From: Escherichia phage ECO111 5-P
Sequence record: OR844765
DNA: 64,000 nt
Strand: one strand, 5' to 3'
Shown here: piece after piece, positions 44,948 to 56,255 of the stretch
Position numbering within the stretch: position 1 is the stretch's first letter
Layout: each line of letters begins with the position of its first letter
Notes under the pieces: generated by a model
What the model was told of the DNA's origin: nothing
Seen by the model: only the letters and a program-made list of their open reading frames with translations
The model's database searches: none
Program-made: the position numbers and the translations under genes

Positions 44948-44984
44948 GTTTACATAAGGATGATGGTGTGATACTATCATCCTA
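44948..44984 (+). promoter_or_regulatory. T4 early-type promoter with dyad (AGGATGAT…ATCATCCT) flanking the -10
   Basis: GTTTAC, 18 nt, TACTAT; inverted repeat brackets the -10; approximate. Confidence 0.5.
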
Positions 44985-45012
44985 TCAAATCACAAACCAA
45001 ACGGAAAAACAA

Positions 45013-45324
45013 ATGAAAACTTATCAAGAGTTTATCGCTGAAGCTACTAAACCCGATAAAAATTTTGTTATTAACACTAACGGCCCGTTAGATGATGAAT
45101 ACGCTAATGCTATTATTAAGTCAATTTCTAATCAAGGCGTTGAAGTATCAAATTTCGAATATAAGAAAAATGATACTTATATGGTAATTAGTATCAAAAA
45201 AGGTTCAAAAGCCAAAATTAAATCTGCATTTGGTGTTATGCGAGCCGACCAAATCGATAACCACGATTTTTCACAAACTGGGGTCAAACGCCAGAATACT
45301 ATTTCATCTAAAGGCATAAAATAG
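45013..45324 (+). CDS. Internal protein (Ip) with capsid targeting sequence
   Basis: From Met at MKTYQEFIAEATK…: canonical T4 CTS ending in I-A-E (gp21 cleavage motif L/I-x-E); adjacent to 57B where T4 carries ipI; track ORF has GTG-extended N-terminus. Confidence 0.7.
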   Translation: MKTYQEFIAEATKPDKNFVINTNGPLDDEYANAIIKSISNQGVEVSNFEYKKNDTYMVISIKKGSKAKIKSAFGVMRADQIDNHDFSQTGVKRQNTISSKGIK

Positions 45325-45360
45325 TTTACATCATGGTAGGACTATGTTATAGTAGTCCTA
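45324..45360 (+). repeat. PeSL-like element: early promoter -35 GTTTAC plus 24-bp perfect dyad TAGGACTATGTTATAGTAGTCCTA
   Basis: Copy 1 of a dyad repeated 4 times in the window (also ~45665, ~52070, ~54011); -10 TATAGT lies in the right arm. Confidence 0.6.
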
Positions 45361-45385
45361 TCAAAACAACCAAATGGAACCTAAA

Positions 45386-45649
45386 ATGAAAACTTTCAAC
45401 GAATTCATCTCAGAATCGTCTGGTGTGAAAATTAACAAAGCGGTCAATCAGGTTATTGCTGATATTCTTAATTTGTATAACATTGACTTAACTCCGCATA
45501 TCACGCTTGGTAACAAACGAAACTTTTTCATATTTGACACATCCGAACTTGATGAAAATCAGTTCAATAACATTCAACGTTTTGCGAATGATAAAGGTCT
45601 TCGACACGAGCCTGGTGGCTATAAAAAATACGCAATATATTTGAAATAA
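45386..45649 (+). CDS. Internal-protein-like protein with variant CTS
   Basis: MKTFNEFISES… resembles the CTS consensus; 88 aa from this Met; upstream ATG at 45374 also possible. Confidence 0.55.
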   Translation: MKTFNEFISESSGVKINKAVNQVIADILNLYNIDLTPHITLGNKRNFFIFDTSELDENQFNNIQRFANDKGLRHEPGGYKKYAIYLK

Positions 45650-45664
45650 AGATATACAAGCCTA

Positions 45665-45688
45665 TAGGACTATGTTATAGTAGTCCTA
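45665..45688 (+). repeat. PeSL-like dyad TAGGACTATGTTATAGTAGTCCTA (copy 2)
   Basis: Exact repeat of the 24-bp dyad; upstream -35 is degenerate (ATACAA). Confidence 0.55.
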
Positions 45689-45718
45689 TCAAAACAAATG
45701 AGTAAATGGAGAAATAAA

Positions 45719-45904
45719 ATGAAACGCGCTGAACTGATTCGTAATGTTGCTGTAGTAATTGCTTCAATGGCTTTTAGTTTTTCGATGTTTGTAGGATTCA
45801 TTTGCGGACTACTGACAACAACTGAAAATTCTATCTCATTGGTAGTAGCATTTCTAATCGGTTTAATCGCTATTGTTATGGATAAAATTGCAAAAGGTGA
45901 GTAA
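45719..45904 (+). CDS. Small membrane protein (2 predicted TM helices)
   Basis: 61 aa from ATG with GGAG RBS; hydrophobic stretches VAVVIASMAFSFSMFVGFICGLL and LVVAFLIGLIAIVM. Confidence 0.5.
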   Translation: MKRAELIRNVAVVIASMAFSFSMFVGFICGLLTTTENSISLVVAFLIGLIAIVMDKIAKGE

Positions 45905-45905
45905 A

Positions 45906-53997: not shown

Positions 53998-54034
53998 GTT
54001 TACAACAAGATAGGACTATGTTACAGTAGTCCTA
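53998..54034 (+). repeat. PeSL-like element (copy 4): GTTTAC plus dyad TAGGACTATGTTACAGTAGTCCTA
   Basis: Same architecture as copies 1-3. Confidence 0.55.
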
Positions 54035-54055
54035 TTAAAACATGAGGAGAATATT

Positions 54056-54361
54056 ATGAAATTAACAGAAACCAATCGAATCGGTCTTTTAACAATATTT
54101 GCATCACCTTTTTACGCAGTTCTTTCTGTTGCAGTATTACAAAAGGCTTACAGTATGGATGGTGTTCCTGGTTTTGTATTCTTATCACCGTTTTTATTAT
54201 TCGTCGGAGCTTTGTTATTATATGCCACGACTAGTTTCGACCATAATGTCTGGGTCAATTATAAACGTAAATTGTCCGAAGAAGAACACGCAGAAGCTCG
54301 TAAAAAAGCTATTGAATCTACCAATCTAGAAAATTTCATTAAAGAATGTCGAGGAAAATAA
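54056..54361 (+). CDS. Small membrane protein ending in …LENFIKECR motif
   Basis: 101 aa, two hydrophobic helices; C-terminal motif family. Confidence 0.55.
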   Translation: MKLTETNRIGLLTIFASPFYAVLSVAVLQKAYSMDGVPGFVFLSPFLLFVGALLLYATTSFDHNVWVNYKRKLSEEEHAEARKKAIESTNLENFIKECRGK

Positions 54362-54362
54362 T

Positions 54363-55049
54363 ATGAATAGTTCTAAAGTGTTTAATAGTCAAGCTCGTGC
54401 AGTAGGTGGTTTTGCTCATGCGATTAAAAACGATCAGATTAAAAACGAGCCTATGTTCTTTAACTGTGATTTGAATTTTGCTTTTGATAATGGCGGCCCA
54501 ATTACTCGTAGCTTTATCCAAAATCTTCCTGACGATTGGAAAGACTCGGATGTAGTATTTGATTCACGAGTCCACATGCTGATGCCTGGTTGGTACCCTG
54601 CTATTCCTGGATATCACCATGACGATGTTCCGCGCCCTGTTATTCCAGTCGGTCAACACTTTATTACTGCAGGACAACCTGACTATGACAACCCTCGTTA
54701 CCATTCTGAACATATTCTTGGTCTTGTTAACGCTGATGTGTGTCCTACTCATTTTGCAACAGGAACTGCAGAGTTCAGTCAGATTCCTGATGGCGAACTT
54801 ATCTATCGTCAGTGGCACAAAGAAGTCCTCGAAAAAATCGAAAAAGGCGAACTAGAGAAATGGGAAGCTCCAGACCGTACTCTTCTTCAGTTTGATTGGC
54901 AAACATGGCACACTGGTTCTCGTGCAATTAGTAATGGATGGCGTTGGTTCGGACGTGTATCTCGTAGTACAGACCGAGTTAAAAAGATTACCAATGAAAT
55001 TCGTGTCAACGCTCAAGTTTATCTAGAATTCCCTATGGAAGGCTGGTAA
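54363..55049 (+). CDS. Hypothetical protein (His/Asp-rich, possible metal-dependent enzyme)
   Basis: 228 aa; …PGYHHDDVPRP…YHSEH…; no confident family. Confidence 0.5.
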   Translation: MNSSKVFNSQARAVGGFAHAIKNDQIKNEPMFFNCDLNFAFDNGGPITRSFIQNLPDDWKDSDVVFDSRVHMLMPGWYPAIPGYHHDDVPRPVIPVGQHFITAGQPDYDNPRYHSEHILGLVNADVCPTHFATGTAEFSQIPDGELIYRQWHKEVLEKIEKGELEKWEAPDRTLLQFDWQTWHTGSRAISNGWRWFGRVSRSTDRVKKITNEIRVNAQVYLEFPMEGW

Positions 55050-55540
55050 TGATACAGAAAATTCACTGGTCAAACATGGACGATGGCGACGAAGGTATTT
55101 CATACTATTCAGTAGATTGGACAGGATGTCCATCCTACTTAGTGAAACATATTTGCCAAGAATTTAAAATCGACCAGCCAGCAGGTATTATCGTGAACAG
55201 ATACATTAATGGATATCAACCTATCGATGAAGTAATACGAACAACTCAAGCTGAGCTTGAAAAGTTTTTCAATAAGTGCCAATGGATAACAGGATGGATT
55301 ATATTTGTACCGTCGGTATGGTTTTTTAGTACTAAGGTGAGTTCTTTCGGTTTTGTTGATATTATTGCTATCTTATTAGCATCTAGTATCATAAGTGTTG
55401 TTGGTGGTATTATTGGTGGAGGTACTGTAGGCATCATTATTAATCTTGTTAAAAGTAGTTTACAGGAACGTAAAGACAAGATAAAAGCCAAGAATAATGA
55501 AGTTGAACGTTTTATTACCGAATGCAGGAATTTGAGATGA
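55049..55540 (+). CDS. Membrane protein ending in …VERFITECR motif
   Basis: 163 aa; soluble N-domain, Gly-rich hydrophobic segment (IISVVGGIIGGGTVGIII), then C-terminal motif. Confidence 0.55.
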   Translation: MIQKIHWSNMDDGDEGISYYSVDWTGCPSYLVKHICQEFKIDQPAGIIVNRYINGYQPIDEVIRTTQAELEKFFNKCQWITGWIIFVPSVWFFSTKVSSFGFVDIIAILLASSIISVVGGIIGGGTVGIIINLVKSSLQERKDKIKAKNNEVERFITECRNLR

Positions 55541-55773
55541 GTATAGCAATTTACATTAAATCAGAATCATGTGATAGTTATCTGTACACGTACGATAAAG
55601 ACGTGTCAGAAGAAAAAATCAAAGACGATCTTAATATGGACTTTGATATGTTCTGTCCTATTGCAGATTACAAACTTGCGGTCTCTAATAGTGAAAGTCC
55701 ATCTAAAGAAACGCGTATTGAAGAATTTATGTCCGAATTAATGGCCAAATCATGGGACCGAGATGATGAGTAA
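55537..55773 (+). CDS. Hypothetical acidic protein
   Basis: 78 aa from ATG overlapping upstream stop. Confidence 0.5.
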   Translation: MSIAIYIKSESCDSYLYTYDKDVSEEKIKDDLNMDFDMFCPIADYKLAVSNSESPSKETRIEEFMSELMAKSWDRDDE

Positions 55774-56221
55774 GAAAAATAAAGTGAAAGAACTATCAGC
55801 TGGTATTATTTTCCTTACCGAAGATAAAGAATTATTCATGGGGCGTGTAACTGGTTCTCGTCCTAAAGGTGCATTAGCTCATCGGTGGGATATTCCTAAA
55901 GGTCGTGTCGAACCTGGCGAATCTCCTATTGAAGCTGCTATTCGTGAATGCGAAGAAGAAACTGGGTTTACACAATACGACCCTGCCTTCCTGAAAGACC
56001 TAGGTGAACATCATTACTCAGACAATAAGAATATTCATCTGTTCCTATATACCATCCCTGTAGAGCACGAGCAATTCAGAAACAGTGTTTGTAATTCCTA
56101 TCATACATTCCCAGACGGACGACAGATTCCTGAATTTGATGCATTCGCTTTAATTAAACCTTCTCAATGGGAATATGTAATGGGCAAATCATTATATAAG
56201 GTGCTCACTACCCTCCTATAA
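55763..56221 (+). CDS. nudE: Nudix hydrolase NudE
   Basis: 152 aa; Nudix box GRVEPGESPIEAAIRECEEETG; immediately upstream of e, as T4 nudE (e.1). Confidence 0.9.
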   Translation: MMSKKNKVKELSAGIIFLTEDKELFMGRVTGSRPKGALAHRWDIPKGRVEPGESPIEAAIRECEEETGFTQYDPAFLKDLGEHHYSDNKNIHLFLYTIPVEHEQFRNSVCNSYHTFPDGRQIPEFDAFALIKPSQWEYVMGKSLYKVLTTLL

Positions 56222-56230
56222 GTAATAAAT

Positions 56231-56252
56231 ACCTCCTATAAACGTGGGAGGT
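56231..56252 (+). promoter_or_regulatory. RBS-sequestering hairpin with embedded late-promoter-like box upstream of e
   Basis: ACCTCC…(TATAAACGT)…GGGAGGT: stem pairs the Shine-Dalgarno GGGAGG with upstream ACCTCC; arrangement known for T4 lysozyme translational control. Confidence 0.55.
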
Positions 56253-56255
56253 ATT

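Follow-up and report, generated by a model that had tools for sequence, protein, structure and literature searches.

What makes the block of small genes between 57B/Acb1 and the lysozyme gene e differ from one RB69-like phage to another, and what part is played by the palindromes that recur at its gene boundaries? We address these questions for the interval 44948-56255 of Escherichia phage ECO111 5-P (record OR844765), using as the window a stretch of 64,000 nucleotides whose numbering is followed throughout. Matches to the interval come from RB69-like phages (genus Mosigvirus), with 94-97% identity and with no more than 91% of it covered by any record; 167 records match it at 95% identity or more. 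The window derives from an RB69-like T-even phage, and the interval is its accessory block from 57B/Acb1 to e. An earlier note on this DNA had proposed that four copies of a 24-bp dyad within the block resemble promoter-early stem-loops (PeSLs), elements defined in phages RB49 and phi1 by Arbiol et al. 2010 (PMC2839356). Our analysis, which includes a comparison with 11 relatives, indicates that the four dyads very probably belong to regulatory cassettes of the PeSL type, and that cassettes are probably exchanged by recombination at the promoter-leader repeats that they share.

The 24-mer TAGGACTATGTTATAGTAGTCCTA is present exactly at 45337-45360 and 45665-45688 and with one mismatch at each of 52070-52093 (G for A in the left arm) and 54011-54034 (C for T in the loop and -10 box); no match was obtained in 100 dinucleotide-preserving shuffles. 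The dyad is therefore real at all four sites at which it had been reported, although the description of four identical copies was overstated because two of them are one base off. Similarly, the -35 hexamer GTTTAC, which was said to be fused to each copy, is found 7 nt upstream of three (at 45324, 52057 and 53998), whereas the copy at 45665 has GATATAC instead. All four dyads are intergenic and stand immediately upstream of open reading frame (ORF) starts (45386, 45698, 52103 and 54056), in agreement with their proposed location at the boundaries of ORF clusters. The putative units that contain them are:

45319-45385, + strand: PeSL-1, with GTTTAC at 45324-45329, dyad 1 at 45337-45360, the -10 box TATAGT (45348-45353) in the loop, and the leader and Shine-Dalgarno (SD) sequence of the internal-protein gene IP-B
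45647-45697, + strand: PeSL-2, upstream of the tRNA.4 homologue, with a weak -35 box TATACA at 45653-45658, dyad 2 at 45665-45688 and the -10 box at 45676-45681
52052-52102, + strand: PeSL-3, with GTTTAC at 52057-52062, dyad 3 at 52070-52093 (G.T in the stem) and the -10 box at 52081-52086
53993-54055, + strand: PeSL-4, with GTTTAC at 53998-54003, dyad 4 at 54011-54034 and the -10 box TACAGT at 54022-54027

An independent consensus scan calls all four as sigma-70-type promoters (TTTACA or TATACA, a 17-bp spacer, TATAGT or TACAGT, and a TG extension). Scored purely as matches to the consensus, TTTACA-17-TATAGT with the TG extension reaches 9-10 of 12 positions at 45325, 52058 and 53999, and TATACA-17-TATAGT, also with the TG extension, reaches 9 of 12 in copy 2. 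Relative to the predicted start site the dyad extends from about -23 to +1, with 8-bp arms at about -23 to -16 and -7 to +1, and the loop TGTTATAG between the arms contains most of the -10 box. Upstream of the -35 box lies an A/T-rich stretch that includes the stop codon of the preceding gene (cataaaaTAGtttac, gaaaTAAagatatac, gcTAAaacagtttac and aaaacTAGtggtttac in the four copies), and each dyad is followed, no more than 25-35 nt from +1, by an SD sequence of the GGA(A/G) type and an ATG. The A-rich stretch with its stop codon, the sigma-70-like promoter, the stem-loop overlapping the -10 box and the SD plus ATG by which PeSLs are recognised thus all appear to be present, the breakpoint feature being absent at dyad 3, and the resemblance suggested in the earlier note seems well founded.

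If these units mediate exchange, relatives should differ at them. Breakpoints taken from BLAST chains between the window and the 11 relatives form 22 clusters within the interval, and 12 of these fall within promoter-leader units, which we take to extend from the -35 box through the first 35 nt of the ORF and which, being ten in number, make up 9.7% of it (binomial p = 1.7e-7). When gene junctions are the unit of counting, breakpoints are seen at 8/10 of those that bear a promoter versus 6/20 of the others (Fisher p = 0.019). Homology with all relatives restarts at 53987-54010, at PeSL-4, and the breakpoint at 45655, at PeSL-2, is the right-hand one in five relatives. Three further promoter units are involved in these differences:

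48611-48668, + strand: P4 (GTTTAC-17-TAGTAT), the site of 713-1681 extra bases in relatives
48972-49042, + strand: P5, whose -35 and -10 boxes have a stem (CACCA/TGGTG) between them
49196-49254, + strand: P6, upstream of frd.3, in which the left arm of the dyad has decayed

Reading of the junctions base by base in p000v, PHB12 and ESh27 shows where the crossovers lie. In p000v, which has no IP-B, the single promoter corresponds to PeSL-1 in its left part and to PeSL-2 in its right part; the change from one to the other falls within the 36-bp dyad core that the two have in common. PHB12, which has no ORF 48669-48974, carries the -35 box of P4 fused to the -10 box and leader of P5, and in ESh27, which has no ORF 49043-49207, promoter P5 is fused to the SD sequence of P6 and the start of frd.3. 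Chimeric promoters situated exactly where single cassettes are missing are the pattern expected of recombination between PeSLs, and the alignments bear out the suggested coincidence of breakpoints with cassette-junction promoters. Gain, loss and replacement of cassettes among the relatives involve crossovers within promoter-leader units; where internal-protein genes are concerned, the crossover on the left is situated in the adjacent N-terminal coding stretch, which is conserved. RB69-type genomes have about ten such units, dispersed over their accessory regions and with 30-60 bp of near-identical sequence in common. Recombination uses the whole of the promoter-leader homology, and promoters without the dyad also take part. 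Moreover, the -10, leader, SD and ATG module of P5 (49003-49049) is identical at 46/47 nt to 11826-11872, 37 kb apart, and the two ORFs headed by this 47-nt module, of 89 amino acids (at 11866) and 54 amino acids (at 49043), are unrelated.

The breakpoint at 51157/51169, which is included in the count, may be a plain deletion. At 51157-51169 a segment of 250 bp is absent from the window, 348Ecol098PP, G2469 and p000v and present in the seven other relatives, including RB69, where it belongs to e.3; next to the deletion lies a promoter-like GTTTAC-18-TATAAT, which in RB69 is inside the e.3 frame. In 348Ecol098PP (record L003, positions 2889-2912) the PeSL-1 dyad has a loop inverted (TAGGACTActatatcaTAGTCCTA) relative to that of other phages, with a -10-like TATCAT retained and the spacing unchanged. 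This inversion hints at hairpin events at the level of DNA, although it is seen in a single record and may be an assembly artefact.

Is the palindrome itself a regular feature of such promoters? The dyad occurs at the corresponding cassette boundaries in 11/11 relatives, rather than being absent from them, and individual Mosigvirus records have 6-11 dyad places each. RB69 has about 10 copies, which are confined to accessory regions and to the early strand and lie upstream of ORF270c, ndd.1, frd.1, ipI, tRNA.4, frd.3, ORF135c, ORF133c, tk.1 and sp; the frd.1 copy (TAGGGCTA...TAGCCCTA) is changed in both arms. When 51 RB69 early promoters were picked without reference to the arms, 10 of them had at least 7/8 Watson-Crick pairs in the dyad register, whereas 10,000 permutations of the right arm gave 2.4 on average and 8 at most, and sliding the register gave 0-1. 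Dyads of unrelated sequence occupy the equivalent place in other RB69 promoters (AGGATGAT/ATCATCCT, GAGAGCA/TGCTCTC, CGAGAGA/TCTCTCG, TGGTACAGG/CCTGTACCA and AGGTCTAT/ATAGACCT), and of 28 promoters that do not belong to the TAGTCCTA-like family 3 have a stem of 7 bp or more, versus 0.38 expected (p = 0.0035). The ipI, trna.4, e.7, e.6, ipIII and ipII promoters of T4 also have -10-straddling dyads, of other sequences, the ipII stem being 13 bp long. An arm-blind scan of viral contigs (GTTTAC-N15-TGTTATAGT) returned about 120 matches, of which only those in T4-like contigs are informative; most are chance hits in unrelated contigs and were discarded. The T4-like contigs yielded the fully paired arm variants TAGGGTCA/TGACCCTA, AAGGGTCA/TGACCCTT, TAGGGCTA/TAGCCCTA and TAGGAGTA/TACTCCTA, and the outer TAGG/CCTA is conserved across dyad variants. 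Two promoters of the window itself carry dyads of other sequence astride the -10 box:

44948-45012, + strand: P1, upstream of the internal-protein gene IP-A, with GTTTAC at 44948-44953, the -10 box TACTAT at 44972-44977, and the arms AGGATGAT (44957-44964) and ATCATCCT (44976-44983)
49482-49552, + strand: P7, upstream of e.6, with the arms TGAGAGCA (49495-49502) and TGCTCTCA (49511-49518)

P1 is present in 11/11 relatives, and P7 has the RB69 paralogues GGAGCA/TGCTCC and CGAGAGA/TCTCTCG. The hairpins, whose stems enclosing the -10 box are 8-12 bp long, are predicted to fold with -12.7 to -17.2 kcal/mol and z scores of -2.6 to -5.3, only 0-3 of 200 shuffles folding as well; individual values are -17.2 kcal/mol (z = -3.45) for PeSL-1, -16.0 (z = -5.3) for PeSL-3, -15.7 (z = -3.5) for P1 and -15.6 (z = -4.0) for P7. 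Because transcripts from the unit's own promoter would start at the last base of the right arm, the hairpin would be restricted to read-through RNA or to DNA.

The palindrome, perfect at 8+8 and with the -10 box at its centre, might also be read as an operator, at which a dimeric DNA-binding protein of phage or host would occlude the -10 box and shut off, for example, a subset of early promoters. The conserved outer TAGG/CCTA suits such a site, and the mechanism by which early promoters are shut down has been described as incompletely understood (PMC3014915). We nevertheless rejected an operator as the principal explanation, since a single protein could not read the several unrelated dyads that one genome has at this position. 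The half-site centres, being 16 bp apart, would also lie on opposite faces of the helix, and no candidate regulator was identified. Moreover, among stems with a single mismatch, 14 distinct arm pairs have G.T and 2 have A.C, an excess that fits pairing in the sense-strand RNA better than recognition by a protein. All in all, we consider an operator very unlikely.

Several observations weigh against the reading of the dyads as PeSL-type exchange cassettes. Dyad 3 has no breakpoint and is syntenic in 145/180 matching records, and breakpoints are also found at promoters that lack the dyad and at endonuclease genes; two of the variable genes are insertions of the homing-endonuclease type, which promoter repeats do not explain. 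Since viable indels must sit between genes, the match of breakpoints with intergenic promoters is inflated. Aligned without regard to the arms, 58 early promoters show no significant covariation between the arms when compared with column shuffles (71.8% paired versus 69.7%, a score reached in 88 of 500 shuffles), and the excess of G.T over A.C could alternatively arise from mutation bias. The promoter activity and the role of the hairpin are, in addition, predictions drawn from the sequence. Finally, no U-tract follows the hairpins (TCAAAACAA or TCAAATTAA comes after the four dyads), and a terminator scan that does call a real hairpin with a T-run at 50155-50172 makes no + strand call for any of them. 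Classical intrinsic termination is unlikely for these two reasons, and on the same grounds we rejected the view that the hairpins are ordinary intrinsic terminators of the upstream transcription unit. Their stability and their location immediately past upstream stop codons would suit that function, and one PeSL stem-loop of RB49 cut lacZ expression about as much as rrnB T1 (PMC2839356), but we regard it as highly improbable for the dyads described here.

The null covariation result, the synteny of dyad 3 and the breakpoints in 6/20 promoterless spacers would all be accommodated if the palindrome were incidental, that is, if the four dyads were simply paralogous copies of one strong variant of the early promoter, with breakpoints gathering there since viable indels need one of the few intergenic spacers. 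The chimeric junctions, however, put the crossovers within shared promoter sequence and not merely in spacers. Dyads of unrelated sequence at the equivalent position in RB69, T4 and other T4-like contigs, together with the 10 paired promoters observed versus 0-1 in slid registers, are likewise difficult to reconcile with an incidental palindrome, which on this evidence appears unlikely. We therefore return to PeSL-type cassettes as the preferred explanation and ask which parts of the block they account for.

The block lies between two conserved anchors and includes two tRNA genes, as the earlier note had stated:

44479-44934, + strand: 57B/Acb1, the left anchor (Pfam PF23474 Acb1, E = 6.5e-59), colinear with RB69 57B
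56256-56744, + strand: lysozyme e, the right anchor (Pfam Phage_lysozyme), colinear with RB69 e
47155-47334, + strand: tRNA-Met (47155-47229) and tRNA-Arg (47258-47334), found by ARAGORN and by Rfam (RF00005, 62 bits each)
48235-48499, + strand: homologues of the T4 small stable RNAs rnaD (48235-48353) and rnaC (48361-48499), from comparison with T4

About 25 real ORFs are present, most of them without a Pfam family, which agrees with the earlier count of some 25 small and mostly unassignable ORFs. Mapped on RB69, the gene order begins with 57B, two internal-protein genes, tRNA.4, tRNA.3, tRNA.2 and ORF151c, continues with tRNA-Met, tRNA-Arg, a T5orf172-type ORF, ORF150c, rnaD and rnaC, and proceeds through three single-gene cassettes (frd.3 among them) to e.6, e.5 and e.4; it ends with homologues of ORF139c-ORF132c, split by an HNH gene, and then e.2, ORF130c, nudE and e. 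Between the equivalent anchors T4 has a much shorter and different set (14 coding sequences, 8 tRNAs, segB, rnaC and rnaD), so that the content of the block, far from being identical to that of T4, is strongly unlike it.

An Rfam search gave nothing beyond the two tRNAs, and the rnaD and rnaC homologues match no Rfam family. They are identical to T4 at 104/119 and 137/139 nt, respectively; rnaC is better conserved than the 92.9% identity of the 354-nt T4 alignment that covers rnaD, rnaC and downstream sequence. The annotation of relatives has tiny hypothetical ORFs at this position, and two small ORFs at 48315-48586 were rejected as genes because the DNA there is rnaD/rnaC. The rnaD/rnaC block ends, immediately before promoter P4, in a hairpin at about 48555-48585 that is GC-rich and has a T-run.

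The clearest single-gene cassettes adjoin the left anchor:

45013-45324, + strand: IP-A, putative internal head protein cassette (PHROG 2667, E = 3.9e-39), N-terminus MKTYQEFIAE
45386-45649, + strand: IP-B, putative internal head protein cassette between dyads 1 and 2 (PHROG 7673, E = 7e-49), N-terminus MKTFNEFISE

Both are probably T-even internal head protein cassettes, to judge from the PHROG matches and from the N-terminal segment, which in IP-A is a capsid-targeting-type sequence. IP-A is absent or replaced in AV110, ST2, ChristianSchoenbein and UGJNEcP1, and IP-B, whose place is taken by ipI in RB69, is missing from p000v. The space between 57B and tRNA.4 holds one or two internal-protein genes in the relatives, of four types in all, each preceded by a dyad promoter and by coding sequence for the conserved segment MKT(Y/F)xEFIxE, immediately past which the left breakpoints lie. 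A strict promoter regular expression gave no match in the internal-protein locus and was replaced by anchoring on start codons. Downstream of e, outside the studied interval, more ORFs start with MKTYxEF(I/L)xE, at 56741, 57501, 57825 and 58165 (window 56741-58200), and breakpoints of the relatives fall at 57501-57857 and 58158-58564; this region appears to be a second polymorphic, internal-protein-like locus.

Not every variable gene is of this kind, and two appear to be insertions of the homing-endonuclease type rather than PeSL cassettes:

53339-53995, + strand: free-standing HNH homing-endonuclease-type gene of 657 bp (PHROG 374 HNH endonuclease, E = 1.9e-59)
47353-47886, + strand: T5orf172/GIY-YIG-like endonuclease-type ORF (Pfam T5orf172 and MUG113; PHROG endonuclease matches)

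The HNH gene is inserted between the ORF134c homologue and PeSL-4. Its DNA is absent from the 11 relatives and from 50,697 phage records, every match restarting at 53998 (the -35 box of dyad 4), and the closest relatives of its protein, at 57-65% identity, are encoded in different genome contexts, the best (64.5%) in vB_EcoM_005 beside a scaffold gene. UGJNEcP1 has a different insert, of 285 bp, at the same site. The T5orf172-type ORF comes directly after tRNA-Arg, at the place that segB occupies in T4, and among the 11 relatives is found only in ESh27 and AV110; in ESh27 the ORF is present and tRNA-Arg absent. The earlier note had recommended the block as the place in which to seek lineage-specific host-takeover or anti-defence genes; the sole gene unique to this phage is the HNH endonuclease, which is not obviously concerned with anti-defence. 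That uniqueness, and the patchy distribution of the T5orf172-type ORF beside the tRNAs, like that of T4 segB, might suggest that the variability of the block comes mainly from free-standing homing endonucleases and the exclusion of flanking markers. Endonuclease genes, however, account for only 4 to 5 of the 22 breakpoint clusters, and the events at IP-A, IP-B, 48669-48974 and 49043-49207 involve no endonuclease gene and have their junctions inside promoter units. Endonucleases as the principal cause are thus quite improbable, and recombination at promoter-leader repeats remains the explanation that we favour.

Under this explanation the exchange unit would consist of a strong sigma-70-type early promoter (TTTACA, 17 bp, TGnTATAGT) and a 24-bp palindrome that holds the -10 box in its loop, followed by an A-rich leader, an SD sequence and a start codon. 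Homologous recombination by the phage, or template switching, would act on the 30-60-bp repeats and so delete, insert or swap a gene along with its expression signals; because the gene would move with its own signals, every recombinant would stay expressed. In line with proposals for PeSLs, the most likely role of the hairpin is in attenuation, processing or stabilisation of the upstream message; it may form in DNA as well, with a local increase in recombination. Its stability and the excess of G.T over A.C are compatible with an RNA structure. Given that covariation is not significant, any selection on pairing has to be argued from the independent families of dyads and from their fixed register. 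A more ambitious proposal would make the hairpin a control element of T4-type early promoters, selected for, fixed in register and maintained in different genera through compensatory change. It would act on read-through RNA as an insulator or processing signal separating long from promoter-proximal transcripts, or else as a DNA structure or protein target in the abrupt shut-off of early promoters. We advance this idea tentatively and think it rather unlikely as it stands.

These results extend the PeSL model of modular gene shuffling to RB69-like (Mosigvirus) phages, with junctions resolved at the level of sequence inside promoter units. They offer an explanation for the differences between phages in the block from 57B/Acb1 to e, and they mark internal-protein and other single-gene cassettes as units of exchange, which should be of use in annotating therapeutic T-even phages and in choosing insertion sites that stay expressed. 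Moreover, because different dyads occupy the equivalent promoter position in RB69, T4 and T4-like phages, the function of the hairpin can be tested with compensatory mutations.

How, then, does the element compare with systems already described? Arbiol et al. 2010 distinguished five positions of the PeSL stem, the commonest being between the promoter boxes or in overlap with the -10 box, and demonstrated promoter activity, attenuation by one stem and the presence of mini-circles (PMC2839356). The units described here share with the RB49 and phi1 elements the A-rich region with an upstream stop codon, the sigma-70-like early promoter, the stem-loop, and the SD sequence and ATG; they too are repeated in hyperplastic regions and adjoin indels or replacements between close relatives, and crossovers in RB49 and phi1 were likewise mapped between the -10 box and the ATG (PMC2839356). 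They differ in having stems of moderate GC content (TAGGACTA/TAGTCCTA) rather than a G-tract and C-tract, a -35 box TTTACA rather than TTGACA, and a Mosigvirus host genome. Comeau et al. 2014 extended PeSLs to T4/PST and KVP40/nt-1 (PMC4122927). The T4/PST elements have the promoter TTTACW-N17-TAYWAT and the stem motif AGNA...TCNT (PMC4122927), which TTTACA-17-TATAGT and tAGGActa...tagTCCTa fit, and the T4 ipI, ipII, ipIII and trna.4 promoters have dyads that straddle the -10 box. Unlike the dyads here, which enclose the -10 box, the T4/PST stems are placed just upstream of the promoter by the figure legend (PMC4122927), and the sequences of the arms at orthologous junctions differ between genera. 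Nolan et al. 2006 predicted 57 early promoters in RB69; hairpins and symmetry did not turn up in a search of their text.

The space from 57B to trna.4, with its one or two internal-protein genes, conserved N-terminal segment and upstream promoter, matches the polymorphic internal-protein loci known in T-even phages (Repoila et al. 1994, cited by both PMC2839356 and PMC4122927); going by those citations, there is no difference of substance, and the phenomenon is an equivalent one in another genus. In the hairpins that sequester the SD sequence of T4 e, soc, 49 and I-TevI the promoter is also internal (PMC3014915), so that, as with the four dyads, the complete stem exists only in read-through RNA. 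The right arm of the four dyads, in contrast, ends at +1 without an SD sequence, and their internal promoter is early rather than late. The window does contain exactly the T4 form elsewhere: at 57024-57085, upstream of denV (TTCCTCCAAG...CTTGGAGGAA), and at 60577-60640 (a 14-bp stem), early promoters lie inside the loops of long hairpins whose right arm is the SD sequence of the next gene, which by analogy with T4 would be sequestered in read-through RNA; T4 denV has an equivalent design with other arms (CTCCTGTAG...CTACAGGAG). Lambdoid morons (Hendrix et al. 2000, as discussed in PMC2839356) resemble the cassettes in being single accessory genes with their own promoter and sometimes a terminator; in the account given there, however, the signals that flank a moron are no conserved repeats, nor are they believed to mediate its movement. 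The element accordingly belongs to an established class of portable early promoters that contain a hairpin of their own; it is seen here in an RB69-like phage and is not a new kind of system.

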